Below, in pieces: positions 29,605 to 56,049 of a stretch of DNA of 64,000 nucleotides (position 1 is its first letter; each line of letters begins with the position of its first letter). The notes beneath the pieces are model-generated. The model was not told the origin of the DNA, did not search any database, and worked only from the letters and a program-made list of their open reading frames with translations. Both the position numbers and the translations under genes were made by a program. The stretch spans positions 16,334 to 80,333 of the forward strand of contig CAYHNH010000003.1 in assembly GCA_964358005.1 (NCBI GenBank), written 5' to 3'. The stretch comes from an uncultured Candidatus Saccharibacteria bacterium (GTDB lineage: Bacteria; Patescibacteriota; Minisyncoccia; Phycocordibacterales; PALSA-1337).

Positions 29605-31347
29605 TCAGTAGCGGAAATGACCGCTGTAGACGACGGGATCGACTCGGGTGTGGCCTCGGAAGGCCGGGGGGAGCGGCAGCGGGTTCACGACCGGCACCAC
29701 ATACTGCATCCGTTCAACCGGTGCGCAGTAGGCGGGATTGTAGCTTTGGCCGTAATCGGCGTAGGCCACCTGCCCGTAGTTGGTCTGCTGCTGGGGCGCT
29801 CGGACGAGCGTCCCATTCTGCTCCGGCGGCGAGCGGTAAAGCTCTTCGCCGGGGTAGGGGTGCGGAACGATGGCACTTACAGGCTTCGCCCCCAGCTGCG
29901 GCCCTTGCGGAGCGGCCGACTCGGGTTGAACCCGCGGTCCTTCATCCGGCATCTCGCGACGCGAGCGACCGGACTGGACTGGGGCGGGCTGGAAGCCCTG
30001 ACCCTGGTGCGGCTGACCCTGGACGACCTGGGGCGCCGCGGGCTGCACGTAGATCACCTGCGGGGCAGGCGCTGCCGCTGCCGGTTGAGCCGGCTGCGAC
30101 GGAACGGGCGCCCAGGGTTGGTGGATCGCATGCATGCTGTAGGATTGCCAGGCCATGAAGGCCAGGCAGCCCAGGATCAGCACGATGACGAACACCAGCG
30201 CCCAGAGCCACGGGGACCCGGACTTCGACGACTTGGTCGTGCGCTCCGAGGTGGTCGTTGCCGACCTCCGCGAACCGCCGCGACGCTTGTCATCGTCGTC
30301 ATCCGAACTGCCACCACCGGAGCCACCACCACCGAACTTCGCGAGAAGCTCGGAGTGGCGCTTGTTCGCATCGGAATCCGAGCGAGCAAAACCGTCGTTG
30401 ACGGTGCCGGCGAGCTGCGTGACCTGGTTCTTCAGCGCTTCCAGCTCCGTGCGGAGCTTGGTGGCCTCATCCTTGGTCGCCGCGTTGCCGATCTTCGTGC
30501 GAAGCTCGGCCATCTCGCGCTCGATCGCGATGATACGGGCGTCGTTGTTGCCAGCAGGCTGGTTGCCGCCGCCGGTGTTGTCACCAGGCTTCGGCTTCTC
30601 AACGTGTTGCAACGCCAGGACGTGCTCGGGGAGGAGTTCGAACACACAGGTGCCCGGCTCGCTCTTGTTGCCGTCCTTGTCGAACGACACGACCGAGACC
30701 ACGAGCTCGTCGCCCGCGGGGTTCAGCTTCGGCTTGTTGCCGAGCAGGACCTCGAGATGACCGTGCGTCACCCCGTCCTTGTCGATCGCCTTGTCGGCCG
30801 CGTTGGCCGTCATGGGCCCGAAGCTGTCACCGGCCTTGTTCTTGGCCGAAATGACGTGCTTCACGACGGACGGTTCTTCCGTCGTGATCCGGAGGAAGAG
30901 CCCACCACGGGTCTCTTCCTTCCGCTTGTTCGTGCGCTTGACGTCCGGCTTCTTCACGGCTTTCTTGCCGGCGCTCGCGCCACTGCCGCCACCACTTGTG
31001 CCGGACGCATTGGCCATGACTTCCGTCACGGTCATCGCGTCGAGGGTGGTTTGGCCAGTGGCCATTTCGGCGGCGGGCGTGCTGTTGGCGTCCGTCACCT
31101 TGATCTCGACATCGATCGGCTCTCCGACCACGATGTCCGTGATCGGGTTCTTGGTTTGGAGTTGGAGTTTGGTGATGTCGAACTGCAGCTTGTCCGACAC
31201 CATGTCACTGCGAGCGATCGTTCCAAGCCAGAGCAGCGTGCCCTTGGCGTTGGTGACCGTAGCGGTGACGTGGGTGGTATCTGCAGAGAGGCTTTCCAAG
31301 TAGACTTGGGCACCCTCGATTTTGGTAACATTGGGCTTCGTTGGCAT
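29605..31347 (-). CDS. large bitopic membrane protein: about 390-aa cytoplasmic region with coiled coil, single TM, about 180-aa Pro/Gln-rich C-terminal tail
   Basis: Coiled-coil segment IAIEREMAELRTKIGNAATKDEATKLRTELEALKNQVTQLAG; TM WLWALVFVIVLILGCLAFMAW; tail PQVIYVQPAAPQVVQGQPHQGQGFQPAPVQ. Most G+C-rich gene in the window; the antisense ORF is judged a shadow. Confidence 0.5.
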   Translation of the reverse strand: MPTKPNVTKIEGAQVYLESLSADTTHVTATVTNAKGTLLWLGTIARSDMVSDKLQFDITKLQLQTKNPITDIVVGEPIDVEIKVTDANSTPAAEMATGQTTLDAMTVTEVMANASGTSGGGSGASAGKKAVKKPDVKRTNKRKEETRGGLFLRITTEEPSVVKHVISAKNKAGDSFGPMTANAADKAIDKDGVTHGHLEVLLGNKPKLNPAGDELVVSVVSFDKDGNKSEPGTCVFELLPEHVLALQHVEKPKPGDNTGGGNQPAGNNDARIIAIEREMAELRTKIGNAATKDEATKLRTELEALKNQVTQLAGTVNDGFARSDSDANKRHSELLAKFGGGGSGGGSSDDDDDKRRGGSRRSATTTSERTTKSSKSGSPWLWALVFVIVLILGCLAFMAWQSYSMHAIHQPWAPVPSQPAQPAAAAPAPQVIYVQPAAPQVVQGQPHQGQGFQPAPVQSGRSRREMPDEGPRVQPESAAPQGPQLGAKPVSAIVPHPYPGEELYRSPPEQNGTLVRAPQQQTNYGQVAYADYGQSYNPAYCAPVERMQYVVPVVNPLPLPPAFRGHTRVDPVVYSGHFRY

Positions 31348-31613
31348 GGTTCTGACTTCCGGTAATGACCGCGCTTTTTGAAGGCGCAGGTCGGGTTTAG
31401 TTGTTCATTTCAACCCACCTGCGCTTGCGCGAAAGGGGCCGAACTGATGCTTTCACAGACAAAAGTATTCGGCTGTCAACAGGATGCTTGATCCTGGGGC
31501 TACACAGCCCTGAACTATGAATTCTTGTACAATGATACTACATATAGAGGTAAAAGTCAAGGGCAGATGAAATATAACTATAATATCGAATAAAGGCTCA
31601 AGTTTGCTGTTTT

Positions 31614-31665
31614 CTAGAAAAAAAGAAGGCCCGCAGTCATAAATGACGGCTGGGCCCTCCTCGTA
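31614..31665 (-). terminator. candidate rho-independent terminator (minus strand) after the 31697-33181 gene
   Basis: On the minus strand GGGCCCAGCCGTCA-TTTA-TGACTGCGGGCC imperfect hairpin followed by TTCTTTTTTTC. Confidence 0.35.
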
Positions 31666-31696
31666 GAGGATTGAAACTAACTCTTTTTGATAAACA

Positions 31697-33181
31697 TTAT
31701 CTGAGGTTACGATCGCACCAGTTCCTGGCAGGAACCGGATGGAACGCTGACTGGAGCAGGCCGAGCGCGCCTGTCGTCGGATCCCTTCCGACCAGTTCTT
31801 CCCAGGGGATGTAGGTGGGGTGGCGGTCGATCGTGTTACTGCCATTCAGGAACATTTCACCTTTCTTGAAGTAGTACCACAGACCGTCGTCACCATCGCC
31901 TTCCTGACCGCACTGCTCGAACGAGGGAAGCAGTTTCCGTCCGAGCTTCTTCAGCTCGAATATACGGATCATGCGCACGGGATACTCGAGGATGCCGGCA
32001 TAGCGATAGGTGGCCTTCGAACCAGTCACGCACAGCTTGAGCTCCTCGTCAGAGAAGATCTGCACGTTACCGGTCTTCTTGGCCCGGACCACCGTGACGC
32101 CTGGCATCTTCTTGTCGTCGGGGATGTGCTTCTGAAGCAGATTCCGACAATGCCTGGCCGCCTTGTGCGCATTCCGGCTGTCCGTCGTCGTGGCGCTCAG
32201 CAGGATGATCCGCTCCTCGCCATCGAGAAGCGCCCGAACGAAGATGGGCGCCTCCTTGCTCTGCCTGTCGACCTCGGACCAGAAGTCCGCTTGGTCGATA
32301 TGCATCGCCACGAAGGCATACTCGAGCAGGTCTGCGATGTCCTGTTCCGTGGTCGCCACATCCTTGGCGCTGGTCCGCGCCATCGCTTCGACTCCGAAGG
32401 CCAGTTCCGTGACGTAAGTTCGGTCTGCGCCTTCTTTGTCGGGAACGAATGTCGCTTTGCGTTGCATGCTGCCATGCATGCGCTGGAACAGGCTGCTGCG
32501 GATGCGCGGTTCCATCGGGCCGTTGGCCTCCTCCCAATCGCCGAGCCACTTGCGGAAGTAGTCGACGAGGTTCTTCTCTCCGGGGGGACGCTCCAGCTTG
32601 ACCGAAGCCATGATCTGGCTCTCGCGAGTGATGATCGCAATGATCAGCGGCTCAATGAAGCTAAAGATCCTCTTGGCGGCGTCGACATTTCGACGATTGT
32701 CCACCTTGATGAGCTCAGCTAGCATCGTCGACCGACAACCACTCTCGGTGTCGCACCGCAGGACTTCTGCCAGAAGCCGCCGCAGCGCCGCCACGTCCTC
32801 CTTCTTAAGGTAGTTCGCGACGAGCCGAGTCGAACACCATCCGGGCATGCGGTCGCCACCTTCCTTCAGGTGCTCGTTGAAGCGACACTTGTCGCCAGTT
32901 CCGAACGGCAGGATGCCGTCCGCGTCGAACTGTTCCTCTGTGCCGGTCATGTCGCCGAAGACGATGTTCCGGTCCCGCAAGGCTTTGCGGATACCGGGGA
33001 ACACGTCTTCGCCGAACAGTGCCGCCACTATCGCTCCAGCGACTTCGTCAAGGTGTGGCGATGGATGCATCGCCAGTTTCTTGACTGGGATCACTGGTAC
33101 CGGGTATGCGAACCCGGTGAACGTCGGGTTTATGAACCCTGCTGACGCTATCATGGGAGTCCTTTGGTTGATGAGGCCCAT
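31697..33181 (-). CDS. hypothetical protein (494 aa), G+C-rich
   Basis: Long ORF with protein-like composition; possible metal-binding His-rich N-terminal motif (MHPSPHLDEV); no family recognised. The plus-strand overlapping ORFs are shadows. Confidence 0.45.
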   Translation of the reverse strand: MGLINQRTPMIASAGFINPTFTGFAYPVPVIPVKKLAMHPSPHLDEVAGAIVAALFGEDVFPGIRKALRDRNIVFGDMTGTEEQFDADGILPFGTGDKCRFNEHLKEGGDRMPGWCSTRLVANYLKKEDVAALRRLLAEVLRCDTESGCRSTMLAELIKVDNRRNVDAAKRIFSFIEPLIIAIITRESQIMASVKLERPPGEKNLVDYFRKWLGDWEEANGPMEPRIRSSLFQRMHGSMQRKATFVPDKEGADRTYVTELAFGVEAMARTSAKDVATTEQDIADLLEYAFVAMHIDQADFWSEVDRQSKEAPIFVRALLDGEERIILLSATTTDSRNAHKAARHCRNLLQKHIPDDKKMPGVTVVRAKKTGNVQIFSDEELKLCVTGSKATYRYAGILEYPVRMIRIFELKKLGRKLLPSFEQCGQEGDGDDGLWYYFKKGEMFLNGSNTIDRHPTYIPWEELVGRDPTTGALGLLQSAFHPVPARNWCDRNLR

Positions 33182-43296: not shown

Positions 43297-43461
43297 ACAA
43301 TAGGTACAAGGGAATATCCGTGTTTCTGAGAGAACTTACTCTTCGGGACACGGATATTTTCCTGCTGGAAAATTCCTCGTGCTCGCCTACCCGGCTCGCA
43401 AGGTCCCTCAGAATAAGTTCTCTCACAAACACTTCTTTGCTATACTCACAAAGTTCCTTAA

Positions 43462-43532
43462 GGGCGATTAGTTTAATGGTAGAACAGTTCTCTCCAAAAG
43501 AACTGGTGGGGGTTCGATTCCTCCATCGCCCG
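43462..43532 (+). tRNA. tRNA-Trp (anticodon CCA)
   Basis: Acceptor GGGCGAT/ATCGCCC, anticodon stem-loop GTTCT-CTCCAAA-AGAAC, T-loop TTCGATT; 71 nt. Confidence 0.85.
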
Positions 43533-43575
43533 CAGATTTTGGCCTAAATATGTTATCCCCAGGGATCTCTTGCCA

Positions 43576-43593
43576 GGTGAACGATAGTTCACC
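43576..43593. promoter_or_regulatory. perfect 18-bp palindrome GGTGAAC-GATA-GTTCACC (Cheo-box-type SOS operator, GAAC-N4-GTTC)
   Basis: Seen directly at 43576-43593, about 250 bp upstream of lexA and about 40 bp upstream of a small ORF; matches the Gram-positive/Cheo-type LexA box core. Confidence 0.55.
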
Positions 43594-43630
43594 TATACTA
43601 TATCCATTAGAGGTTAACTATCAAATACCC

Positions 43631-43837
43631 ATGAGCAAGCATCAATTAGTCAGGTCCCTTCGTTCGGAGATCAAGAAGCTTAATAGGATCATAGACCGCA
43701 AGATCATGCTCGGTCTGCCATATAGCGATGACAGTCGCCGCCACAAATTCCTGGTGTTACAGCTCAAACGTCTGACACCAGCGAGGATTGGCTGGTTCAG
43801 CAGATCCATGAGCTTCGTTTCGATATTCATGCTCTAA
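43631..43837 (+). CDS. small basic hypothetical protein (68 aa) between the SOS box and lexA
   Basis: ATG 43631, MSKHQLVRSLRSEIKKLNRIIDRK...; could be spurious, but it lies between an SOS-like operator and lexA in the same orientation. Confidence 0.25.
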   Translation: MSKHQLVRSLRSEIKKLNRIIDRKIMLGLPYSDDSRRHKFLVLQLKRLTPARIGWFSRSMSFVSIFML

Positions 43838-43844
43838 TAGACCC

Positions 43845-44408
43845 ATGGATTCATACAAGGATAAGATCTTGGGCTTCTACTCATCACGCAAGCGCATGCC
43901 GAGCTATGCGGAGATTATGAAGCTAGTGGGCTTCAAGTCAAAGAATGCCGTCTACAAGCTCATAGAGAATCTGGTGGAGCAGGGCGTAGTGATCAAGGAT
44001 GCCACTGGCCGTCTCATACCGACCAAGCTTATGGATGAAGTCCCTCTCCTCGGCCTCGTGGAAGCAGGATTTCCTTCGGAAGCAGATGCACAGACGCTCG
44101 ATACCATAGACGTCAATGAATATCTCTTCGAACACAAGGAGTCATCGTATCTATTGCGCGTGAAAGGCGACTCCATGATCGAGGCTGGCATACATGAGGG
44201 CGATATGGTCATAGCGGAACGCGGCCGCGCTGCCAAGCCGGGTGACATAGTCATAGCGTGCGTGGATGGGGCCTGGACCATGAAATATCTGCGCACAAAA
44301 GCCGGCAAGAATTACCTCGAGCCAGCCAATAAGAGGTATAAGCCTATCTATCCCGAGACGGCATTGGAAATAGCGGCTGTGGTGAAGGGTGTGGTGAGGA
44401 AGTATTGA
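43845..44408 (+). CDS. lexA: LexA repressor (S24 peptidase)
   Basis: N-terminal LexA-type winged HTH (MPSYAEIMKLVGFKSKNAVYKLIENLVEQGVV); cleavage-site/peptidase segment VKGDSMIEAGIHEGDMVIAERG with the catalytic Ser in GDSM and the catalytic Lys. Confidence 0.85.
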   Translation: MDSYKDKILGFYSSRKRMPSYAEIMKLVGFKSKNAVYKLIENLVEQGVVIKDATGRLIPTKLMDEVPLLGLVEAGFPSEADAQTLDTIDVNEYLFEHKESSYLLRVKGDSMIEAGIHEGDMVIAERGRAAKPGDIVIACVDGAWTMKYLRTKAGKNYLEPANKRYKPIYPETALEIAAVVKGVVRKY

Positions 44409-44501
44409 GCGCCTTGCCTTTTGTCGTGGTAATAGTAATATGCGGCCAGATAATTGAAATAGTCACAGCATCAACAACCCCGCTAGGGAGGAGTTCATCT
44501 C

Positions 44502-45791
44502 ATGATCTACATAGGTACCCCCGTAGCCATGAAGGAGCTCCTTCATGGCACCAGTTGCTATATAACCGAGGTGACGATCACCTCTCGCGATTCGAACAAG
44601 TTCAGTGGCCGCCTCACGCTAGAGGACAGCTCTACTGCCAGCGACGAGAGCCATATCTGGATGGCGACCTACGCTCAAGGGACTGGTTGGATGGTTACAG
44701 GGGACGGCGTCAAGCTGTCCAATGGCGAACGAATCAGATCTACAAAAACCTACCCGTTCTCCCTCAAGTCTGCTATCAATGATGGCGTGAGGGGATTCCT
44801 CTCCGAGTGGTTGGCCAAGAACAGGAGCATTATCCACGAGCGCAAAGGGCCGGAAGCGGCAGAAACGCCTGCTCCGCCCCCGCCTCCTCCAGCTCCATCA
44901 AGCAACGGCTCGTCGCCCAAGGGCATCGAGATCGTCGAGGTCCTGCTCGCTGAGGTCATCCCGTTCGAGGGCCAACCTCGGTTAGAGTGGTCGGAATCCG
45001 ATCATCTCGACATGGTCAATGGCTTGAAGCAGGACGGCCAGAAGCAGCTCATAATCGTCACTCCCATCACCGGTATTCCAGGCAAGCGCTGGAAGCTCGT
45101 GGATGGAGAGCGGCGTTTCCGCGGCGGCCTCGCTGCAGGAAAGCAGAAGATGTTCGCCATTGTCCGGCGCTACGCTTCTGAAAAGGAGATGTTCTGGGAC
45201 TCTCTGACGATGAACATGCATCGCCGCGGGCACACTCCTTACGAATGTGTGCGCGATATCGGCAGGGCCATGCGCGACGGCAAGACGGTGCAGGAGATCT
45301 GCATCGGCACCGGGCTCTCCGACTGTGCGGTCTACCAATTCCTCCAGATGCAAAGGCTCGAGCCGTCGCTCTTGGAGCTACTGCGTCTGTCTGTCCCGAA
45401 GAAGGACCGACTGAGCGTGGAGTCTGCCAAGAAGCTCTCCCGTGTGCCTGACCAGAAGGAGCAGCTGCGCATCTGGGGCATCGCCAAGAAGGAGAGCACC
45501 CCGAGCCTTCGGAAGCTCAAGGTGGATGAGCTGACTGCGCCGATACTGCATAGCCTCCCGGTAAAAGGTCGCGTCCGCAAGCCTAGCGATAATGCGGTTC
45601 GGCTGTTGAGGGTCCTACAGAACCTCGAGGCTGGCGTCGCGTTCATCGAGAGGGCTACGGATGCCGATCTCAGGGCCTTTGCGACCTGCGCAAGGTCGAC
45701 GACGGTCAATACCAGCGACCTCCTGAAGCGGTTGAATGTTGCAACGAGAGGCTGGAACTCATTCAGGGACAAGGTGGTCAAGGTGGCTTGA
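44502..45791 (+). CDS. ParB/Srx-like N-terminal (nuclease) domain protein, 429 aa, G+C-rich
   Basis: Central ParB-N motif LIIVTPITGIPGKRWKLVDGERRFRG; unknown N-terminal 150 aa and a Pro-rich linker (PAPPPPPPAPSS); GGGAGGAG RBS 7 nt upstream of the ATG; 94 bp downstream of lexA. Confidence 0.55.
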   Translation: MIYIGTPVAMKELLHGTSCYITEVTITSRDSNKFSGRLTLEDSSTASDESHIWMATYAQGTGWMVTGDGVKLSNGERIRSTKTYPFSLKSAINDGVRGFLSEWLAKNRSIIHERKGPEAAETPAPPPPPPAPSSNGSSPKGIEIVEVLLAEVIPFEGQPRLEWSESDHLDMVNGLKQDGQKQLIIVTPITGIPGKRWKLVDGERRFRGGLAAGKQKMFAIVRRYASEKEMFWDSLTMNMHRRGHTPYECVRDIGRAMRDGKTVQEICIGTGLSDCAVYQFLQMQRLEPSLLELLRLSVPKKDRLSVESAKKLSRVPDQKEQLRIWGIAKKESTPSLRKLKVDELTAPILHSLPVKGRVRKPSDNAVRLLRVLQNLEAGVAFIERATDADLRAFATCARSTTVNTSDLLKRLNVATRGWNSFRDKVVKVA

Positions 45792-45934
45792 AGACCTCCA
45801 TGATCGCCACGGGGCGGAAGCAATTCCGCCCTTTTTTGATTCATGTCTGGGAATAGCAAATATCAATACAACAAAAATCGCAGGTGAGGGCCTGCGATCG
45901 ACGGATGGAGCACCGGTCGGTGCTGTAAGGGGAG

Positions 45935-46204
45935 TCATGATTCCGTGCCCCGTGGATTTAGGAGCAGTTCGACCTCGTAGGCACGGGCCGGTTCGAACCG
46001 GACGCTCCCCGGCTGTAGTGTTTCGATGCTGTCGCGATGAATGAGGAGATCGAGCACTTGGGCATCAGTCATCGCCTCTCCGTTGGCCCGGTTTACGAAA
46101 CCATCGGCGCCGAAGGACAATTCCATTCTCGGCAGAAACTCGAGGATATATCCCCGGCCTGCGACAGTGAAGATACGCTCTGGGACATTCGTTGGATTAG
46201 CCAT
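45935..46204 (-). CDS. hypothetical small protein (low confidence)
   Basis: ORF with ATG at 46204 (MANPTNVPERIF...); no domain; may be non-coding. Confidence 0.2.
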   Translation of the reverse strand: MANPTNVPERIFTVAGRGYILEFLPRMELSFGADGFVNRANGEAMTDAQVLDLLIHRDSIETLQPGSVRFEPARAYEVELLLNPRGTES

Positions 46205-46759
46205 AAATTGATCTGTACACAATGCTACATATTGCCAATCGTCTCGTCAATGCGTAGGAATTTTCAATATAAATAAAAGAGCGCGTAACCAACCCATGTC
46301 GGTTACGCGCCCACAACTCAACCCCTTAGAGGCAGAGACCGGACCCCCGAAGGGCGACCGGGCTTTCGTGATGGTGACCACCAACGTCGACGCCTTGCGT
46401 CGCGGTCGGTGGATAGCATCCTTATTACTCCAGTGCGACTGATGACTAACCGTCAAACCGTCTGACGGCTCGCGCTTCATGTGGAGCACCGACTGTCCTT
46501 CCCGTGGTCACGGGATCCAGTACCGAGAAGCATCGGTACCCTTATCGGAAACGCGGTTCCAGCGGGGCCAATCGAGTGGTCCCAACGCGCGTTCCATGCT
46601 GGCCTCGATCTGGCAGAATGCCGTGAATACAAGGCCAATATGGAACGCGCGATACACGTGGAGTGACTCAATGAACGTTATGTGGGTAGTATACCACGCA
46701 GGAATGATTTGTCAAGTCCGTGTGTGGGGCATAAATTCGTTGTACGATAAGGCAACTCT

Positions 46760-47365
46760 ATGCCAACTGAATTAACAGCAATTTTTGGAGTTCTATCTGG
46801 AATCGCAGTCCTAATCGGTGGCATCCCATATCTCCGAGACATTCACCTAAATAGAGCACAGCCTCATATATTGAGCTGGTTGGGCTGGACCTTTATCACT
46901 GCTCTCGGTGCCAGCGCGATGCAGGCTGAAGGCAGCACTTGGGTGGTCGGAATACTGTGGGCGAATGCGCTCAATTCCTTCCTGATAGCGGCGTACTCGG
47001 CTATTAAGAAAACTGGTGTCTGGTCGACTGGTATCTATGATTATATTTTTTTCGGGCTAGGCGTCATGGGACTAGTCCTGTGGCAGGTTTTGGATATGCC
47101 TGTCCTGGCGATTATCTGTGCCATTGCAGCTGACTTGTCGTTTGGCATTCCGACGATCATAAAATCATACAAGAATCCGGGATCAGAAACATTCTTTGTG
47201 TGGCTAATGTCCTCTGTTTCTGGTTTTCTTAGCTTGCTTGCTATCCAGCAATTCGTTTTCCATGAGGTGGCATATCCACTATATTTGTTTATTTATGACA
47301 CTATAGTCATGCTACTAGTATTGAAAATAATTCACAGACCAGGCCGTGGTCTCGTTCAGAAATAA
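46760..47365 (+). CDS. polytopic membrane protein (6 predicted helices), low-G+C
   Basis: 201 aa, highly hydrophobic (IFGVLSGIAVLIGGIPYL; VVGILWANALNSFLIAAYSAI; ...); no family recognised. Confidence 0.45.
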   Translation: MPTELTAIFGVLSGIAVLIGGIPYLRDIHLNRAQPHILSWLGWTFITALGASAMQAEGSTWVVGILWANALNSFLIAAYSAIKKTGVWSTGIYDYIFFGLGVMGLVLWQVLDMPVLAIICAIAADLSFGIPTIIKSYKNPGSETFFVWLMSSVSGFLSLLAIQQFVFHEVAYPLYLFIYDTIVMLLVLKIIHRPGRGLVQK

Positions 47366-47369
47366 TTTC

Positions 47370-48683
47370 ATGCCTGACATCGACCTATACAACAAATCTC
47401 CCGAATCATACGATGATCTCCAACACATGCGCCCGGACTATGTCGGTGCGCAAAAGGCGTTTATAGATCTGGCGGTACAACATTTGAACGGCAAACAGAA
47501 TATCTCTGTCGCTGATTTCTGCTGCGGCACAGGTCAAGACACCAAAACGCTCGCCGGACATGTGAAGATTGATAAGGCCACGCTCATAGACATAAACAAG
47601 GACTTTTTGAGAATTGCTAAGGAGAAGGACATTGGAGTTCACAATATCGTGACGATTTGCTCTGACATTCTGGAGGCTGACGTGTCAGCGAATAATGATC
47701 TAGTCATCTCGATGTTCGCCTATCACCATGTTCCAAATAATAGGAAGGCTGATTATCTAAAGAAGGCGAAGGAGGCTCTTAAGCCTGGCGGCCTGCTTCT
47801 TCTAGGTGAGATATTCATGCAGAGTAAGGCGGATACGTTGAAGTACTATGAGGATTTGATCGCTTCGATTCCCGGATCGAAGGATAATCCTGCTTTGGTC
47901 AGTTTTCTAAGGCAGACTGCGCAAAGCGATGATTTTGAATTTAAAGTCTCCAAGGAGTATGCCTACAATCAACTAAAAGAGGCAGGTTTTTCTCTGGTTG
48001 AGTCGAAAAAGATATGGCCCCTCGATGGCAGTTTGTCGGCTGATGATGGGACATTTGTGGAGGTTTGGAAATCAAATATTACGAAATTGTTTCTAACATC
48101 TGCAGGTTTTACTAACTCTGAAACTACAGATATTTTGATGGAAGAGATCCCAAAGCAGGCCGAATTGTGTAAGGTTTTGATGATTAGCTGCACCCAGGAT
48201 GAGACTGAGGAATCCTATGTGAATGAGTCCAAGAATGAGCTTCGATCACTCGGTTTCAAGGACATAAAGGTTCTTGATCTGCACAAACCGATGAAGCCTG
48301 ATCCTGCCGACATTGTGTATGTCTGTGGCGGCAATACTTTTGCGATCCTGCAGAAAATGAAAGAAACGGGTGTCGATAAATTTATAATTGATTCAGTGAA
48401 TAAGGGTGCCTTGTACATAGGCGTTTCCGCGGGAAGCATTATGGCTGGCAAGACCATCGAGATTGCCGGATGGGGCTCGACCGGAGACAAGAATGAGGTC
48501 GGCCTCAAGGATCTCACTGGCTTCGGTTTTACTGACGTAGCAGTTTTTCCTCATTATCAGACTTCACAAAAAGATGAGGTCGCGGAATTCAAGAAGAGGG
48601 CCACTTATCCGGTTATTGAAATTACCGACAATCAGATGGTGTTTGTGAGGGATAATAAAGCAAAAAAGATAGGGAGATTTTAA
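47370..48683 (+). CDS. fusion protein: class I SAM-dependent methyltransferase (N-terminal) plus peptidase S51/dipeptidase-E-like domain (C-terminal)
   Basis: N-terminal VADFCCGTGQDTKTLAGH (motif I) ...LLLGEIFMQS; C-terminal IVYVCGGNTFAILQKMKETG...IGVSAGSIMAG (GGNTF plus nucleophile-elbow serine typical of the S51 family). Start at ATG 47370 (track start is GTG 47346). Confidence 0.5.
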   Translation: MPDIDLYNKSPESYDDLQHMRPDYVGAQKAFIDLAVQHLNGKQNISVADFCCGTGQDTKTLAGHVKIDKATLIDINKDFLRIAKEKDIGVHNIVTICSDILEADVSANNDLVISMFAYHHVPNNRKADYLKKAKEALKPGGLLLLGEIFMQSKADTLKYYEDLIASIPGSKDNPALVSFLRQTAQSDDFEFKVSKEYAYNQLKEAGFSLVESKKIWPLDGSLSADDGTFVEVWKSNITKLFLTSAGFTNSETTDILMEEIPKQAELCKVLMISCTQDETEESYVNESKNELRSLGFKDIKVLDLHKPMKPDPADIVYVCGGNTFAILQKMKETGVDKFIIDSVNKGALYIGVSAGSIMAGKTIEIAGWGSTGDKNEVGLKDLTGFGFTDVAVFPHYQTSQKDEVAEFKKRATYPVIEITDNQMVFVRDNKAKKIGRF

Positions 48684-48720
48684 AGTGGACATAAATCCGA
48701 TTTGGAGTAATATTTAAGCC

Positions 48721-49251
48721 ATGTCCGTCACCCTCATCTTCGAAGCTCACGGCACGACATTCGACAACGAAGCTCATCTCTCGTCGGGCTGGAATGACGT
48801 GGCTCTGTCGCCATTGGGCGAGCGGCAATCGCGAGAGATGGGCGAGCGCTACAAGGACGACCATTTCGACGCCATATTCTGCTCGGACCTACAGCGCGCC
48901 TACAAGAGCGCCGAGATCGGATTTGGGGACAAATGGCCGATCATCCGCGACGCCCGATTACGAGAATGCAACTACGGCGACTTGACCCAGAGCCCGAGCG
49001 AAATAGTCGACAGGGAAAAGCCGCAGAGGATACATACGCCATTCCCGAACGGGGAGAGCTATATGCAGACCAATGTCCGTATGAAGTCATTCCTGGATGA
49101 TTTGAAGCGCGATTACAATGGCAAGCGCGTCATGGTCATCGGTCATCGCGCGACCCAGTATGGCATCCAGAACATCGTCGAAGGCACGCCGTACGAGAAG
49201 CTCACCACCACGCATTTCAAATGGCAGCCAGGGTGGGGGTATGAGGTGTAA
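48721..49251 (+). CDS. histidine phosphatase (phosphoglycerate-mutase-like) family protein
   Basis: N-terminal LIFEAHGTTFDNEA (RHG-type catalytic His motif variant) ...GWNDVALSPLGERQSREMGERY; 176 aa. Confidence 0.55.
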   Translation: MSVTLIFEAHGTTFDNEAHLSSGWNDVALSPLGERQSREMGERYKDDHFDAIFCSDLQRAYKSAEIGFGDKWPIIRDARLRECNYGDLTQSPSEIVDREKPQRIHTPFPNGESYMQTNVRMKSFLDDLKRDYNGKRVMVIGHRATQYGIQNIVEGTPYEKLTTTHFKWQPGWGYEV

Positions 49252-49263
49252 AGCATAATTTTC

Positions 49264-49950
49264 ATGGAAAATATAAAAGAAGACGGAACAATTAATAAAG
49301 AAAGGAAAGTGCCTTGTTCAGAATGTGCATCCAAAACTTATCACAAGGTCTTAAAATCGATTAATTATCTTGAATCTGGGGACTGGGGAATTACATGGGG
49401 TAATTATGAAATAATTATATGTCAGGGATGTAGATATATTTCCTTTAGAAAAGTTTTAGGGACTGATGATGTAATTGGACAAGATGAGGAGGGAAATTTC
49501 ATATACGAGGAGGAAGAGGAGTTGTTCCCTCCAAGATTGAGTGGAAGGAAAGAGCTTGAGGATAATAGGTTTTTGCCCTTGGATGTCGGAAGAGTATATC
49601 GTGAGACCTATCGTGCTATTAATGGCGAACAACCGATTCTCGCCGGAATGGGAATCAGGGCGTTGGTTGAAGCTGTATGTGTTGAAGAAAAAATAAAGGG
49701 TAGAAACTTGGAGAAAAGGATTGATAACCTAGTTGAAGCTGATTTACTTACCAAGAAAGGCGCTGAAATTCTTCAGCAAATTAGGCTTTATGGTAATGAT
49801 GCGGCTCACGAAGCAAAAGCGGCAAAGATTGAGGATCTGGGGGTCCTAATGGATATAGCCGAAAACCTTCTACACAATACATACCTACTTAAGATAGGGG
49901 TAGCAAAGCTAGAAAAAGTAAAAAGTAAGCCTAAAGAGGCTAAGAAATAG
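49264..49950 (+). CDS. DUF4145-domain protein with N-terminal Cys4 zinc-ribbon-like region
   Basis: CSEC...CQGC N-terminal pairs; C-terminal DUF4145 signature (KRIDNLVEADLLTKKGAEILQQIRLYGNDAAHEAKAAKIEDLGVLMDIAENLL). Confidence 0.5.
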   Translation: MENIKEDGTINKERKVPCSECASKTYHKVLKSINYLESGDWGITWGNYEIIICQGCRYISFRKVLGTDDVIGQDEEGNFIYEEEEELFPPRLSGRKELEDNRFLPLDVGRVYRETYRAINGEQPILAGMGIRALVEAVCVEEKIKGRNLEKRIDNLVEADLLTKKGAEILQQIRLYGNDAAHEAKAAKIEDLGVLMDIAENLLHNTYLLKIGVAKLEKVKSKPKEAKK

Positions 49951-49999
49951 AACCCTGGTTTGCCTGGTATTGACTTTAAAATTAGGCTACAATTAGTCT

Positions 50000-50602
50000 A
50001 TGGACATACAGAGGGCACAGCAAGCAGCTTTGTATTTTGCATCTAGCGTAAGCGATCTATATCTGGTTAAGCTTATGAAGCTTTTCTATTATCTAGATTT
50101 CATTTCTGTAAGAGAGACAGGTAAATCTGTCACAAATGATACTTATTTTCATTTGCCATACGGACCAATACCGAGCTTTATAAAGGATAATATTGATTCT
50201 CTAGATTCTGGTATTAAGGCGGAGGAGGTAAAAATACTTGATCCAAATCAAACCGGTACCCCGGTGTGGTTAAAGATTTCTAGTATATTTGACGGGGTTC
50301 TCGAGTTAAACACTAGGGGGAAAGGTAAAATTGCCAAAGTGGTTAATGGTCAGGCTTTTGATAGTAATAAAATTTCTGAATATGAAAAGAATCTCTTGGC
50401 CGATATTGTCAGAGATCTTGGAAATAAAACAGTGCAGGAAATTGTTAATATGACGCACTCTGAACCACCTTATGCACAAACCTCACCTAGTCAGGCAATT
50501 CCATATGATCTTGCATTTCAATTAGATGTAAGGCAGATATTGCCAAGTAGGACTGTAGTTTTCGATAAGGAAATTGCCTTCTCAAGATTTGTTTCATCCT
50601 AA
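50000..50602 (+). CDS. Panacea (DUF4065/SocA-like) domain protein, candidate type II antitoxin
   Basis: KLMKLFYYLDFISVRETGKSVTNDTYFHLPYGPIPSF matches the DUF4065/Panacea core (KLqKLLYyaDf....G..itg..y.a...GPV). Confidence 0.6.
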   Translation: MDIQRAQQAALYFASSVSDLYLVKLMKLFYYLDFISVRETGKSVTNDTYFHLPYGPIPSFIKDNIDSLDSGIKAEEVKILDPNQTGTPVWLKISSIFDGVLELNTRGKGKIAKVVNGQAFDSNKISEYEKNLLADIVRDLGNKTVQEIVNMTHSEPPYAQTSPSQAIPYDLAFQLDVRQILPSRTVVFDKEIAFSRFVSS

Positions 50603-50608
50603 TATGTT

Positions 50609-51058
50609 ATGCCTCCAGTAAAGTTTGGTGAAATTTATTTTAAAAGAGGCCAACTCAAAAACAAGCTTAGTGGATCTTCCGATGGTCACTACGTGGTTGT
50701 GCTAGGAGTCGATACAAAAGCAAACTCAATTTTGTATCAGACTCTGGAATCGGGCCTTAATAAAGTATTTTTATATCCAAACTCGCCCAAGGCCCCGTTC
50801 ATTGATGTTGATACAGTTTCCTTTATTAACTATAGAAAATATTTAAATTTATTACATAAAGACACATGTATTATGATGCATTATGGAGTAGATACAGAGT
50901 CCTTGCCAGTGTTTCTATCTCCTAAATATGTTAAGAAGGGTATATTGAGTGATCATAATAAAAAAGCATTAATGATTAGTATAATTCCGGCTAGAGGATA
51001 TAGATTATCTGTACAAGAGTCATTACTGATAAATTATGCTTACCAAAATTATAAATGA
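50609..51058 (+). CDS. candidate toxin partner of the Panacea-domain gene (possible PemK/MazF-like fold)
   Basis: Starts 7 nt after the Panacea gene stop. N-terminal GEIYFKRGQL...DGHYVVVLGVD resembles the G(D/E)I(W/Y).V.....G.E....RP.vVv pattern of PemK/MazF/CcdB-fold toxins; weak. Confidence 0.35.
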   Translation: MPPVKFGEIYFKRGQLKNKLSGSSDGHYVVVLGVDTKANSILYQTLESGLNKVFLYPNSPKAPFIDVDTVSFINYRKYLNLLHKDTCIMMHYGVDTESLPVFLSPKYVKKGILSDHNKKALMISIIPARGYRLSVQESLLINYAYQNYK

Positions 51059-51070
51059 TGTTTTAAGGCC

Positions 51071-51652
51071 ATGAACAATAAACTTATTGGTACTATCATT
51101 ATAGTCGCCATTGCATTGATTGGGGCATATTATATTGGCCAAAATTCAAAGGGTCCTGTTCAGGAGCCTCTTCCTATTAAGACTGAAGCGAATTATATTG
51201 TGCCGACTCCAGTTGCCAAAAAAAATCCCGCCAATCAATCCGCTAAGACGAGTATTGAGTTATCGGAGAACCCAGAGTATTTGTTTAGTAAGAATTTTGA
51301 TCCCAGCCTTGTAAAGGTGTATGGAGTAGGAGTTGGAGATTATCAGAGTAAAATCGACCCTTCATCAGTTGTAGAAGGCGTGGAATATTTTGGTTGGATT
51401 CATACTACAAATAAAATTGGATATCGAATTGCCGACAATAAAGTTGTGGAGATTTCATTAAACAGTTCTGTGCTCGCCCGGATGGGTATTTTTCGTCAGG
51501 ATGAGATTATTATTAGATTTGGTAAGCCAGATCAGACCAACGAGTCTGGAAATTCACCATACAAGACATTTAAATACTACTATATCAATAAAGGCTTGGT
51601 TGTTTCCTACTACGAAACTGGTGGTTTGGCGGTAAATATAATTGATAATTAA
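51071..51652 (+). CDS. hypothetical N-terminally membrane-anchored protein
   Basis: TM helix LIGTIIIVAIALIGAYYI then a 165-aa soluble domain; low G+C. Confidence 0.35.
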   Translation: MNNKLIGTIIIVAIALIGAYYIGQNSKGPVQEPLPIKTEANYIVPTPVAKKNPANQSAKTSIELSENPEYLFSKNFDPSLVKVYGVGVGDYQSKIDPSSVVEGVEYFGWIHTTNKIGYRIADNKVVEISLNSSVLARMGIFRQDEIIIRFGKPDQTNESGNSPYKTFKYYYINKGLVVSYYETGGLAVNIIDN

Positions 51653-51663
51653 TTTTAAAATAT

Positions 51664-51906
51664 ATGCCAACCCCACAAGTGCTGAACTTGCTCGGTTTAA
51701 TACTAAATACGGCTGCTGCCATCGTATTAATTGTTCCAAATCTTAGCCCAACAAAGAGTTTAAATGATGATCAGGTCATTTCTGGAAAACCAGGGTCACC
51801 AGAGTATATTCAGGTTAAGGACTTAAAGGAAAGCTGTATAAATAAAATAGGACTAATTCTATTAGCCTTGGGATTTATCTTACAGATAATATCTATCTTC
51901 TATTAA
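51664..51906 (+). CDS. small two-TM membrane protein (80 aa)
   Basis: VLNLLGLILNTAAAIVLIV and IGLILLALGFILQIISIFY hydrophobic helices. Confidence 0.3.
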   Translation: MPTPQVLNLLGLILNTAAAIVLIVPNLSPTKSLNDDQVISGKPGSPEYIQVKDLKESCINKIGLILLALGFILQIISIFY

Positions 51907-51960
51907 GTGCGTGCACGCCGTTAGATTTTAGTGTTTTGTGAAAAGGCGTATACTGTTTGC

Positions 51961-53136
51961 ATGGAACCCCTAGCCAACAAAATACGACCCCAAAACCTGA
52001 AGGAGTTCGTGGGGCAGGAGCATCTGGTGGGCCCGGGGAAACCTTTGCGCAAAGCCATAGAGGACAAGCACCTGTTCTCATTCGTGCTCTGGGGACCTCC
52101 GGGGACGGGCAAGACGACGATAGCGCGCATATATGCGAACGCCCTGGATGCGCGGCTGTATGAATTGTCGGCCGTGTCCGCGGGCAAAGACGACATCAGG
52201 AAGATCATCGACGATCCCGAGATGCTCGATCAGCGACCGAAGCTGCTATTCCTGGATGAAATCCACCGCTTCAATAAAGCCCAGCAGGATTTCCTCCTGC
52301 CTCATGTGGAGAGTGGCAAGCTCACATTGATCGGCGCCACCACCGAGAATCCCAGCTTCGAGGTCATACCGGCACTTTTGTCGCGCTGCCGTGTATTCGT
52401 GCTCAAGTCACTGACCGAAGATGACCTCCGCGCTATCGTGAAGCGCACGAAGCTGAAGGTGCCCAAGGCCGCCGAGGACTGGCTCGTCGGTCTGGCCAAT
52501 GGCGACGCCCGCATAGCCATCACGGCGATCGAGAACTGCAAGCGCCTCTATGGAGCCATCACCCTCGAGAATCTCAAGAATACATTCGAGCACGCCTTCA
52601 TCAGGTTCGATAAGAAAGGGGAGGAGCACTACGATACTATTTCCGCATACATAAAGAGCATGCGTGCCGGTGATGCTGACGCGGCTTTGTATTACCTCGC
52701 GCGTATGGTGGAGGGAGGGGAGGATCCCAAATTCATTGCGAGAAGGATGGTCATATTTGCTTCAGAGGATATCGGACTAGCTCAGCCGACCGCGCTCGTC
52801 GTGGCCAATGCGGTGTTTGAGGCTGTAGATACGATAGGGATGCCGGAGGCTGGTATCAACCTCGCGCACGGAACGGCGTATCTGGCTCTGGCCGCTAAGG
52901 ATCGTTCAGCTCATGACGGCTATTTCGAGGCTCTCGGCGACGTGAAGAAAACGGGCAATCTGCCTATACCTATGAAGGTCAGGAATGCACCAACCAAGAT
53001 GATGAAGGAGATGGGCTATGGCGCCGGCTATGAGAAGTATGACAAGGAGAGCTATCTGCCGGAGAAGCTGAAGGGGAAGAAGTATATAAAAAGGCCGGAT
53101 AAGGGCTTGGGGAAAAACGAGGGAGGGGAAAGGTGA
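51961..53136 (+). CDS. rarA: replication-associated recombination protein A (AAA+ ATPase RarA/MgsA)
   Basis: Walker A WGPPGTGKTT, Walker B LLFLDEIHRFNKAQQD, and the C-terminal MgsA helical domain (GYGAGYEKYDKESYLP). Confidence 0.85.
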   Translation: MEPLANKIRPQNLKEFVGQEHLVGPGKPLRKAIEDKHLFSFVLWGPPGTGKTTIARIYANALDARLYELSAVSAGKDDIRKIIDDPEMLDQRPKLLFLDEIHRFNKAQQDFLLPHVESGKLTLIGATTENPSFEVIPALLSRCRVFVLKSLTEDDLRAIVKRTKLKVPKAAEDWLVGLANGDARIAITAIENCKRLYGAITLENLKNTFEHAFIRFDKKGEEHYDTISAYIKSMRAGDADAALYYLARMVEGGEDPKFIARRMVIFASEDIGLAQPTALVVANAVFEAVDTIGMPEAGINLAHGTAYLALAAKDRSAHDGYFEALGDVKKTGNLPIPMKVRNAPTKMMKEMGYGAGYEKYDKESYLPEKLKGKKYIKRPDKGLGKNEGGER

Positions 53137-53181
53137 TAGAGTATGGGTATTAGGATTAATCAATAACATCTTTCATTTAAC

Positions 53182-53598
53182 ATGAAACAAGTACTTGCTA
53201 GGGTGTATCACAACAGAAACATAGACACGGGCGCTCTCATCATCCGCCTCGCCATCGGTATCATATTCGTATCAGCCGCCTGGATGAAGATGTCCGACAT
53301 GACCGCGACCGTCGGATTCTTCGCTCAGATGGGCTTCTCGGCTTCGCAGGCGTATCTCGTAGCCTGGGTCGAGATGATCGGCGGCGTGCTGCTCATCCTC
53401 GGATTGTTCATCAAACCGGCCTCGGTAGCTCTCGCAGTCATCATGGCAGTCGTTGTCTGGGGTACTCCCGGCAGTAAGTATGACGTATTCTTCGGGCATA
53501 ACTACCAGTTCATCCTCTTGGTCACTCTCATCGCCCTGTACTTCATAGGCGCTGGCAGATTCTCGGCCCTATTCCTCCGAAAGAAAGGCTCGAACTAG
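53182..53598 (+). CDS. DoxX-family membrane protein
   Basis: Four hydrophobic helices; IIRLAIGIIFVSAAWMKM and VEMIGGVLLILG match DoxX. Confidence 0.65.
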   Translation: MKQVLARVYHNRNIDTGALIIRLAIGIIFVSAAWMKMSDMTATVGFFAQMGFSASQAYLVAWVEMIGGVLLILGLFIKPASVALAVIMAVVVWGTPGSKYDVFFGHNYQFILLVTLIALYFIGAGRFSALFLRKKGSN

Positions 53599-54498
53599 TT
53601 TTTCCGCTTCGGCATTCTCGCCGGGCCTGAACCACCTGATGGCCGTATTCTTGCGCCACCAGGTTTTTTGGCGTCGGGCATATTGCCAGATCTTCGTTGT
53701 GAGGGTCACCTGGAGCTCCTCGAGGGTGAGGTTGTTCTGCAGATATTCAGCCAGGTATCTATATTCGAGGCCGAGCTCCTTCATGCGGGCATAGCTTAGG
53801 CTGTATCCCTCGGGACCTGGGGCATGGAGCTTGTGGGCCTCTTCTATCATGCCGCCCTGCAGACGTGCGGAGAGGCGGTTCACGATCCTTGTCCGTATCT
53901 CATCGTCGGCCGGCATAATGCCGATCATGAGCGGGTCGTATTTGGCGTGCGATACCAACATGGGGACTTGCCCGAGATTTTGGGCGATGAGAAGGGCACG
54001 AATGACGCGGCGCTTATTGCTATAGCTTCCGTTCGACTTCATCTCCTCGGCGCGGCGTGGATCGAGGAAGTGGAGCTCCTTGTAGAGGGCCTCTAGGGGC
54101 TGTAGTTCCAGGGATTGCTGGACCTCATGGTCGGTCTCGATTTCAGGTAATTTTGTGTCGTTGATCAGCGCATCGATATAGAAACCAGTGCCACCGCAAA
54201 TGATAGGCAGTCTTCGGCGATGGAGGATGTCCGCTACGGCATCTTCGGCGAGGTGCTTCCATTGGGAAACGGTGTATCTCTCGTGGGGATCGGCGATGCT
54301 TAGTCCATAGTGCTTGACTCCTTTTGTCTCTGTTGGGGTTATCTTGCCGGTGCCTATGTCGAGACCCTTGTAGACCTGGCGCGAGTCAGCGGATATGACT
54401 TCGCCATCGAATTTGAGGGCCAGCTCCACAGCCAGGTCGCTCTTACCTGAGGCTGTCGGGCCAACTACTACGAGGATCTTGGGTCTCTCTGTTTTCAT
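53569..54498 (-). CDS. miaA: tRNA dimethylallyltransferase
   Basis: ILVVVGPTASGKSDLAVELA P-loop and ISADSRQVYKGLDIGTGK motif; start at ATG 54498 (MKTERPK...), 4 nt from the tRNA-Leu 3' end. The longer track ORF runs through the tRNA. Confidence 0.85.
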   Translation of the reverse strand: MKTERPKILVVVGPTASGKSDLAVELALKFDGEVISADSRQVYKGLDIGTGKITPTETKGVKHYGLSIADPHERYTVSQWKHLAEDAVADILHRRRLPIICGGTGFYIDALINDTKLPEIETDHEVQQSLELQPLEALYKELHFLDPRRAEEMKSNGSYSNKRRVIRALLIAQNLGQVPMLVSHAKYDPLMIGIMPADDEIRTRIVNRLSARLQGGMIEEAHKLHAPGPEGYSLSYARMKELGLEYRYLAEYLQNNLTLEELQVTLTTKIWQYARRQKTWWRKNTAIRWFRPGENAEAEKLVRAFLSEE

Positions 54499-54502
54499 TC
54501 TG

Positions 54503-54584
54503 TGCCGGGAGGGAGAATCGAACTCCCATGGATTACTCCGCACGATTTTGAGTCGTGTGCGTCTACCAATTCCGCCATCCCGGC
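54503..54584 (-). tRNA. tRNA-Leu (anticodon CAA), long variable arm
   Basis: Acceptor GCCGGGA/TCCCGGC, anticodon stem-loop CACGA-CTCAAAA-TCGTG, long variable arm, T-loop TTCGATT; 82 nt. Confidence 0.85.
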
Positions 54585-54627
54585 TTGTGTGGCAAAGTCT
54601 ACAATATTTTTGTGTTAAAATACATCC

Positions 54628-55587
54628 ATGTCTACCGGCTACGTAAATAACGCTGTCTTCTGGGTGGAGATCGAAAAGATCGCGCCCAACCCGTACCAGC
54701 CGCGCCGTGAATTCGATGTCGACAAATTGCGTGACCTCGCTGACTCCATAAAGATGTACGGGGTGTTGCAGCCCCTTACTGTGAGCCGCAAAGAGGTATA
54801 TCGCGCGGACGGTGGCATGAATGTCGAGTATGAGCTCATCTCCGGTGAGCGTCGTTTGCGCGCTTCGAAGCTCGCCGGCCTGTCGCAGGTGCCTGTGCTC
54901 ATCAGAACTGGCGAGGATGATGGCCGGGTCAAGCTCGAACTCGCCATCATCGAGAATCTCCAACGCGAGGATCTAAACCCGATCGACCGAGCACGCTCGT
55001 TTGAGCGTTTGGCTAAGGAATTTAAACTCAAGCAGATCGAGATTGCCGAGAAGGTCGGCAAAAGCAGGGAGTATGTCTCCAATTCTGTCCGCATTCTTTC
55101 ATTGCCTGATGAGATGATCACTGCTCTCGAGGAAGGTAAGATATCCGAGGGACATACGAGACCCCTCCTCATGCTCATCGACCGGCCGGAGGAGCAGATC
55201 GTCCTATTCAAGGAGATCATGATGAAGAAGCTCACAGTGCGTGAAGCAGAGTCGTTGTCGCGCCGGGTAGCAACGGAGAAGATACGCAACAAAACGAAAT
55301 ATCTCGATCCGGCTATCATTGAAATGGAAAAGAACTTTACGGAATCGCTTGGCACACGAGTCCGTATCGAAAAGAACAAGGAAGGAGGCACTGTGACGAT
55401 CGACTTCTTCAGCCCTGATGACCTGCGGGCGCTGCTCGAGAAGCTCAATAAGACTGAGGCAGTGGTAGCGGCCATGCCGGCAGTCGCAGTTAGCGAAGAC
55501 CAAAAGCCCATGGATGACCGAGCGCCTGCGGATGTAGTCAAGGAAGACAATACGGAGCTGTATTCTCTGAAGAATTTTTCACTGTAA
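54628..55587 (+). CDS. parB: chromosome partitioning protein ParB/Spo0J
   Basis: ParB-N box (YELISGERRLRASKLAGLSQVPVLIR), HTH and C-terminal dimerisation region; no parA adjacent in this window. Confidence 0.85.
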   Translation: MSTGYVNNAVFWVEIEKIAPNPYQPRREFDVDKLRDLADSIKMYGVLQPLTVSRKEVYRADGGMNVEYELISGERRLRASKLAGLSQVPVLIRTGEDDGRVKLELAIIENLQREDLNPIDRARSFERLAKEFKLKQIEIAEKVGKSREYVSNSVRILSLPDEMITALEEGKISEGHTRPLLMLIDRPEEQIVLFKEIMMKKLTVREAESLSRRVATEKIRNKTKYLDPAIIEMEKNFTESLGTRVRIEKNKEGGTVTIDFFSPDDLRALLEKLNKTEAVVAAMPAVAVSEDQKPMDDRAPADVVKEDNTELYSLKNFSL

Positions 55588-55671
55588 GGAGGAGCTCGGT
55601 CTGAGAGCGCTGGACAAAAAATCACGCCCCAGGTGGAGCGTGATCGAGGAGAATGTCTGGATAGATTCGAA

Positions 55672-56049
55672 CTAGTTCACCGGAGCCATGTCGGCGAGAA
55701 GATCGCTGATCAGCGACCTGACCTGCTCGATCGTGAAGGGCTTATTCAGCATGTGCGGGCTGAATTTGGCCATCCGATCAGCTGTGCTTCGGCTCAAGGC
55801 ACCGGAGACAAAGACGATAGGGAAGGTGTGGCCAAGCCTTCTGATATCCTCCGCCATGATGATGCCATCCATTCGGGGCATCTGATAATCGGTGATAACG
55901 AGGTCAGGTGGAAAGGCTTTTATCGCCTTCAGGCCTTCGATCCCATCGGAAGCCTCAAGCACATTGTAGCCGGCTTGTCTGCATACCGCTGCTACGACAC
56001 CCCGCAGGGGCAGATCGTCATCAACGATGATGATGGTTTTCGTACGCAT
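55672..56049 (-). CDS. single-domain response regulator (CheY-like receiver)
   Basis: MRTKTIIIVDDDLPLR...LVITDYQMPRMDG... receiver signature with phospho-acceptor Asp and conserved Lys region; 125 aa. Confidence 0.7.
   Translation of the reverse strand: MRTKTIIIVDDDLPLRGVVAAVCRQAGYNVLEASDGIEGLKAIKAFPPDLVITDYQMPRMDGIIMAEDIRRLGHTFPIVFVSGALSRSTADRMAKFSPHMLNKPFTIEQVRSLISDLLADMAPVN

Follow-up and report, generated by a model that had tools for sequence, protein, structure and literature searches.

A lineage-restricted small-protein gene next to lexA, behind a LexA-type operator, in a Patescibacterium: anatomy of a probable autoregulated operon

We analysed a 64,000-nucleotide (nt) stretch of contig CAYHNH010000003.1 (assembly GCA_964358005.1) from an uncultured Candidatus Saccharibacteria bacterium, hereafter the window, in which a putative LexA operator (SOS box) precedes a small open reading frame (ORF) and the repressor gene lexA. 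The original prediction, made from the letters of the sequence, had placed the box just after a tRNA-Trp gene and a basic ORF of 68 amino acids (aa) between the box and lexA, and these neighbours are indeed as described: the tRNA-Trp gene spans 43462-43533, the small ORF 43631-43837 (+ strand) and lexA 43845-44408 (+ strand). The box itself, GGTGAACGATAGTTCACC (GGTGAAC-GATA-GTTCACC), occupies positions 43576-43593, and both of its 7-bp arms are perfectly complementary. Its description as a perfect palindrome of 18 bp holds for the coordinates and the arms but not for the centre: the GATA is not self-complementary, which makes the element a 7-4-7 inverted repeat and not a strict palindrome. The end of the box lies 252 nt from the ATG of lexA, which begins 7 nt past the stop codon of the small ORF.

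Absent from the original prediction was the promoter in which the box is embedded. The 18 bp of the box make up the complete spacer of a sigma-70-like promoter on the + strand, between a -35 hexamer TTGCCA (43570-43575) and a -10 hexamer TATACT (43594-43599), for which a promoter scan gave 10 of 12 consensus matches; relatives read TTGACA or TTGCAG at the former and keep TATACT or TATAAT at the latter. Because the box fills the promoter spacer, a bound repressor would sit between both contact points of RNA polymerase. Transcription is predicted to start near position 43606, and the predicted leader matches no Rfam family and folds no better than shuffled sequence (z = +1.3). The 14 specified bases of the box have a single exact match in the window, for an analytic expectation of about 64000/4^14 = 2e-4. 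Of the bare core GAAC-N4-GTTC there are two copies (43579 and 27756) where 0.63 are expected; the core alone is thus not significant, and the significance of the site rests on its extended arms and on its conservation. The second core lies inside unannotated ORFs and lacks the extended arms, while a box with two mismatches at 38194 falls inside smc; both were treated as chance occurrences.

The lexA product scores 112.6 bits against the TIGR00498 equivalog model (cutoff 110.95) and matches Peptidase_S24 at 2.3e-26. Taken alone, the Pfam LexA_DNA_bind match is sub-threshold (19.8 vs 23.7), which indicates that the DNA-binding domain is divergent. The cleavage site (VEA74-G75FP) and the catalytic dyad (Ser110, within GDSM, and Lys147) are invariant across six aligned orthologues. 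By its equivalog score we identify the S24 protein of the window as a LexA repressor, for which DNA binding and RecA-stimulated autocleavage are predicted.

To place the box in a wider context we surveyed lexA loci in one genome per GTDB species, seeding the search with an alignment of LexA proteins and hence independently of the DNA motif. The 45 best loci (L012-L056) are almost all from Patescibacteria, with LexA proteins 49-78% identical, and the survey also covered 35 loci of other phyla. An exact GAAC-N4-GTTC lies within 600 nt upstream of lexA in 39 of the 45 loci, and two more carry it with one mismatch, at a chance level of about 0.009 per locus. The distance from box to lexA is 250-440 nt where the small ORF is present, the box then lying upstream of that ORF, and 27-76 nt where the ORF is missing. 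This shift with the small ORF implies that the box travels with the promoter and that the ORF lies inside the transcription unit. A TTG (-35) and a TAnnnT (-10) flank the box in 56 of 66 box-bearing lexA promoters from several phyla, and the promoters with the box in their spacer include those of Nitrospirota, Syntrophales, Kiritimatiellia and others. In the footprint alignment GTGAAC and GTTCAC are invariant and the promoter block is conserved, with variation in the 4-nt spacer and the flanks; the box is also present where no tRNA lies upstream.

Since the same design recurs at lexA across Patescibacteria and other phyla, the box is best regarded, on this comparative evidence, as an ordinary, ancient and widespread autoregulatory LexA operator of an already known type. 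Its core in the lexA promoter, overlapping RNA polymerase contacts, is that of the Cheo/DinR box of Firmicutes, whose repressor likewise combines an Ala-Gly cleavage site with a Ser/Lys dyad. The locus differs from that system in having one site only, whose outer bases are conserved (gGTGAAC...GTTCACc) and which fills the whole -35/-10 spacer, and in that the first gene of the autoregulated operon is not lexA. Work by Sanchez-Osuna, Barbe and Erill from 2017 is said to have reported a Gram-positive-like LexA motif for Patescibacteria, with which the site in the window would agree. The proposal that the operator defines the LexA motif of this lineage does not stand, as the same in-spacer arrangement is found in Nitrospirota, Syntrophales and others. 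Moreover, a dedicated study of the Patescibacteria SOS network, concerned with the same superphylum and the same regulator, already exists (Sanchez-Osuna et al. 2017, Environ Microbiol 19:3465, as cited in PMC8565304 and PMC7739468).

The original prediction suggested that the small ORF forms, with lexA, an operon behind a LexA-type operator, and named its conservation in relatives as a check. The ORF is indeed conserved, and comparative evidence strongly supports the operon: 28 close homologues of 65-71 aa and 42-100% identity, evolving under purifying selection, were recovered, and the order promoter, box, small ORF, lexA recurs in every relative examined. Thirteen residues are invariant in this close set (M1, K3, N18, I21, D22, I25, G28, Y31, R36, R37, H38, K39 and F40). 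Between the ORFs of two of the loci (L006 and L007) there are 23 nucleotide differences, 22 of them at the third codon position, and zero amino-acid changes; across all pairs, the proportion of synonymous differences (pS) is 0.82 and that of nonsynonymous differences (pN) 0.44. Its homologues, invariant residues and third-position substitutions mark the 68-aa ORF as a genuine protein gene under purifying selection. A profile search of 1.84 billion cluster representatives (clustered at 50% identity) returned 345 relatives at E <= 1e-3, of which 152 were at E <= 1e-10, and no family match was found for the 68-aa protein in Pfam, NCBIfam or PHROG. Homologues carry the label Paceibacterota or Patescibacteria, and contigs encoding the identical 68-aa protein with the same neighbours come from 0.1-um filtrates of Hainich groundwater (ENA ERZ1292624 and others).

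The linkage of this gene to lexA is tight. Wherever genomic context is available, at more than 40 loci, the small gene is immediately followed on its own strand by an S24/LexA gene, and the fetched loci, about 0.9 Mb in total, hold no copy away from lexA. The distance from the stop codon of the small ORF to the ATG of lexA has a median of 9.5 nt (range -8 to 210, with some overlaps), and divergent members of 50 and 89 aa occupy the same place before lexA. Around the pair the flanks vary: rpmG, tRNA and ParB_N genes in the window, and elsewhere an ABC transporter and a reverse transcriptase, a helicase and RND/ABC genes, a dUTPase and dinB, UDG, or a Cho-like nuclease followed by a second S24 gene. 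The small gene was detected in 29 of the 45 surveyed loci and in none of the 35 loci of other phyla. A Shine-Dalgarno sequence is absent before both the small ORF and lexA, an absence that carries no information because most genes of the window lack one. At one further locus (L094) the start of the small ORF lies 7 nt past the -10 hexamer, and a leaderless transcript is likely there.

The protein itself is strongly basic, with 15 Lys and Arg against 4 Asp and Glu (net charge +11; family median +8). AlphaFold2, run with the 28-sequence alignment, gave a model with a predicted local distance difference test score (pLDDT) of 82.7, in which residues 3-27 and 32-48 are predicted to form an antiparallel helical hairpin (pLDDT >90), followed by a basic linker modelled as disordered and, near the C-terminus (57-67), by a short 10-residue helix of low confidence. 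The linker is variable in length across the family, from 50-aa forms without the tail to forms of 90-130 aa. The last 14 residues are hydrophobic, aromatic (median of 3 Phe, Trp or Tyr) and moderately amphipathic, with a median hydrophobic moment of 0.34. No uncharged C-terminal run in the family is longer than 12 residues (median 7), from which we conclude that the protein has no transmembrane segment. Fold searches with the model returned generic hairpins only: Foldseek found no match in the PDB at E <= 0.001, with GIL01 gp7, a LexA-binding protein discussed below, not among the 50 matches listed, and the family profile had no significant match among PDB sequences. Residues 16-48 resemble the C-terminal hairpin of Escherichia coli bS20 ("IDRK..G....ARRHK.L..QL..L"; profile match E = 0.5), and a reverse comparison of E. 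coli S20 with one family member was likewise weak (E = 0.07). Homology to bS20 was rejected, the resemblance being attributed to chance, given an hhalign probability of 0.2% against a profile of 28 S20 sequences and no match to Pfam Ribosomal_S20p.

Upstream of the -35 hexamer, at 43553-43561 on the + strand, lies an element TTATCCCCA that matches the consensus DnaA box TTATCCACA at 8 of 9 positions, and relatives read TTATCCACA itself at the aligned position. With at most one mismatch, and on the same strand, the element begins 24-27 nt (or 18-19 or 36-37 nt) before the GAAC core in 27 of 28 small-gene promoters, 20 of these sites being exact; the spacings of 18-19 and 36-37 nt amount to one helical turn less or more than 24-27 nt. 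It is present in 7 of 12 Patescibacteria promoters without the small gene (1 exact) and in 2 of 26 lexA promoters of other phyla, for a background rate of 1.4% per scanned interval of 52 nt. For exact sites, promoters with the small gene compared with those without it give p = 3e-4 in Fisher's test, uncorrected for phylogeny. Genes 3' of additional TTATCCACA sites were uninformative. Relative to the predicted start the element would lie at about -53 to -45, a position typical of an activator site or UP element, and it suggests a second input to the promoter, possibly DnaA and replication status; DnaA, the small basic protein or another factor may bind it. Stress genes controlled by DnaA boxes are known: sda of Bacillus subtilis, and uvrB of E. 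coli, reported to be co-regulated by DnaA and LexA. The likeness lies in a consensus DnaA box TTATCCACA beside a stress promoter, and Sda is also a small helical-hairpin checkpoint protein. The differences are that the window copy reads TTATCCCCA, that the small protein has no homology to Sda and that Patescibacteria do not sporulate.

Beyond lexA, the gene content varies among relatives. In 15 of 37 relatives lexA is followed by a gene for a Y-family polymerase (IMS), namely at 12 of the 16 loci that lack the small gene and at only 3 that carry it; further genes found there encode PIF1 helicases (3 loci), a methylpurine glycosylase or an RNase_T exonuclease. In a metagenome set, Patescibacteria-type dinB lies directly downstream of lexA at 56 of the 69 loci with enough upstream sequence. 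This placement of repair genes under the lexA promoter supports the SOS nature of that promoter. A few stand-alone dinB copies, probably from other phyla, have no box upstream, and an independent box at dinB was accordingly rejected, Patescibacteria-type dinB being nearly always part of the lexA operon. No recA, uvrA or dinB is present in the window, and no recA among the fetched Patescibacteria loci. At one locus (L092, 3376-5261) lexA is followed by a fusion of RNase_T, GIY-YIG, UvrC_M and Cho_C domains and then by a short second S24 (UmuD-like) gene.

In the window, the gene after lexA encodes a ParB_N-domain protein (44502-45791, + strand; ParB_N 1e-09) and starts 93 nt downstream of lexA; a promoter and terminator scan called no terminator-like site on the + strand between the two. 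The gene is preceded by a strong Shine-Dalgarno sequence GGGAGGAG, whereas about 80% of the inspected genes have none, and its product, which contains a proline-rich linker, matches PHROGs of phage ParB-like proteins. It is possibly a third member of the operon, specific to this organism. Relatives carry dinB, PIF1, a reverse transcriptase or RND/ABC genes at this position, and such variable content suggests that the ParB_N gene was acquired recently.

Taken together, we consider it likely that the locus is an autoregulated lexA operon of a Paceibacteria-class Patescibacterium, and we tentatively read its small protein as a functional partner in the LexA circuit, given that the gene is genuine, lineage-restricted and found only at lexA. 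From the sequence anatomy, conservation, coding status of the ORF and synteny with lexA, all directly observed, we infer a mechanism that comprises binding, induction, co-transcription and an activity of the small protein. A LexA dimer on the operator would, by established LexA biology, exclude RNA polymerase from the promoter. Upon DNA damage, activated RecA would stimulate LexA to cleave itself at Ala74-Gly75 by means of Ser110 and Lys147, and the promoter would be derepressed. A single mRNA from near 43606 would then yield the 68-aa protein, next new LexA and possibly the ParB_N product, and the newly made LexA would re-close the loop. Since the small gene would lie on the lexA transcript, its product would also be made at basal lexA expression.

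What the small protein might do in this circuit can be approached by analogy. DdrR of Acinetobacter, a genus-specific protein of about 80 aa that lacks homologues elsewhere and is always encoded beside umuDAb, acts as a co-repressor (PMC7273328). The likewise small gp7 of phage GIL01 binds LexA, makes its hold on DNA stronger and prevents its RecA-mediated cleavage (PMC4551915). The likeness to DdrR-UmuDAb is that of a lineage-restricted small protein encoded beside a LexA-like S24 repressor gene and under its operator. However, ddrR is transcribed divergently, whereas the small gene here would be co-transcribed with its repressor gene, and that repressor is a canonical LexA rather than UmuDAb. 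Unlike the protein described here, gp7 comes from a phage and works at phage promoters; the likeness to both is one of functional class, not of homologous family. Along these lines we advance, as a tentative suggestion, that the small protein modulates LexA or the operator complex, either as a co-repressor or as a regulator of cleavage or DNA binding. The tight and obligate linkage to lexA, the expected basal co-expression, the strong positive charge and the lack of a membrane anchor favour such a partner.

Several observations weigh against assigning the small protein to the LexA circuit or against a wider SOS role of the locus. Sixteen of the 45 Patescibacteria lexA loci are without the small gene, so that LexA in general does not need the protein. 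LexA proteins encoded beside the small gene are set apart from the others by three columns alone (K16 vs R, E65 vs G and P67 vs R/K, in window numbering), two of them just ahead of the cleavage-site strand, and this difference may reflect phylogeny only. The predicted helical-hairpin fold gives no functional information, and the aromatic amphipathic tail could be a membrane-targeting helix, which would favour an effector. Finally, a second independent promoter carrying the box was not found in the window or at stand-alone dinB loci, so that any regulon beyond the lexA operon would be hypothetical.

The strongest competing explanation, raised in the original prediction and in our estimate improbable but by no means negligible, is that the small protein acts as a checkpoint effector induced in the SOS response, such as a division inhibitor of the kind of YneA, SosA, ChiZ or SidA. 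The C-terminal aromatic amphipathic tail would then bring the protein to the membrane or divisome and perhaps, as a degron, speed its clearance. YneA, SosA, ChiZ/Rv2719c, DivS and SidA/DidA are small, poorly conserved, LexA-controlled neighbours of lexA; they possess a transmembrane segment, in some cases with LysM, and those beside lexA have promoters of their own and are transcribed divergently. The small gene resembles these in its position under a LexA operator, its size and its restriction to a lineage, the hydrophobic aromatic tail after the basic linker is conserved, and ftsZ and ftsA are present in the genome. The family, however, has no transmembrane segment, its uncharged C-terminal run being 12 residues at most, and no similarity in sequence or fold to known inhibitors, nor any Pfam or NCBIfam domain such as LysM. 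The charge of +11 is very high, and the gene lies upstream of lexA on what would be a shared transcript, so the protein would be made whenever lexA is expressed. Its confinement to lexA is, moreover, a linkage that an effector would not require. As a hypothesis, a partner comparable to DdrR or gp7 therefore fits somewhat better than an inhibitor of the YneA/SidA type.

Far less probable is that the locus represents a mobile element or prophage at tRNA-Trp, with the S24 protein as a CI/ImmR-type repressor and the inverted repeat as the operator of the element. The locus does lie 42 nt past the tRNA-Trp gene, the ParB_N gene combines an atypically strong Shine-Dalgarno sequence with phage ParB-like matches, and in a close relative the gene after lexA encodes a reverse transcriptase. 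Yet no att-like repeat of the tRNA 3' end is found in the 12.6 kb from 43400 to 56000, and no integrase among the neighbouring ORFs scanned against Pfam. The S24 protein scores above the equivalog cutoff for LexA, the pair of small ORF and lexA keeps the same promoter in many chromosomal contexts, and lexA of other phyla uses the same operator design; the repair gene dinB is the commonest gene after lexA in the surveyed loci, if at only 3 with the small ORF.

Least probable of all is that the inverted repeat is a chance repeat, the tRNA-Trp terminator or the site of another regulator, and the small ORF a non-functional or regulatory upstream ORF: the bare core is admittedly not rare in the window, but the 14-base site is, its arms are conserved at lexA promoters across phyla while spacer and flanks vary, no T-run follows the box and no + strand terminator is called there, the box is kept where no tRNA lies upstream, and the ORF has its 13 invariant residues and third-position substitution pattern.

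Returning to the autoregulated operon with a putative small LexA-circuit partner, its operator and the autoregulation of lexA are textbook matter and add little; the new leads are the small-protein family and the phased DnaA-box-like element. An unannotated family of about 345 clusters, found only at lexA, is a candidate SOS component in an uncultured radiation that is experimentally little known, and a consensus DnaA box in phase with the lexA promoter would tie the control of replication to the damage response. The SOS regulon in these small genomes may amount to little beyond the lexA operon, that is, lexA with dinB or lexA with the small gene. One could go further and propose an undescribed LexA-circuit family of Paceibacteria, either of chromosomal co-regulators tuning the binding or cleavage of LexA or of non-membrane checkpoint factors of a new kind, which together with an input of replication status through a positioned DnaA box would make a self-contained dual-input operon constituting essentially the whole SOS response; this bolder version is speculative, and we lean against it.

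The remainder of the window offers a few further observations. Its chromosomal genes include ftsZ, ftsA, gyrA, smc, clpB, alr, rpmG, topA, rarA and serS. Among 46 gene starts most lack a Shine-Dalgarno sequence, and at several a -10-like element lies only about 15-25 nt ahead of the ATG; a TATACT -10-like element also lies upstream of tRNA-Trp. Just past rpmG, a long hairpin at 43312-43359 (GAATATCCGTGT ... ACACGGATATT, then TTTTCC) is probably the rpmG terminator, missed by the terminator scan because its loop is about 24 nt long. The region 48000-52000 has a low GC content (0.36-0.45 vs about 0.53 elsewhere), contains a DUF4145 gene (49264-49950) and short family-less ORFs, and may be foreign DNA. 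Several long ORFs (379-582 aa) without a Pfam family fill the region 27615-33181, which also holds, inside ORFs, the second core at 27756 without extended arms. Within this region, where GC content reaches 58-59%, two ORFs on opposite strands overlap almost completely (29605-31347 on the - strand and 29617-31365 on the + strand).

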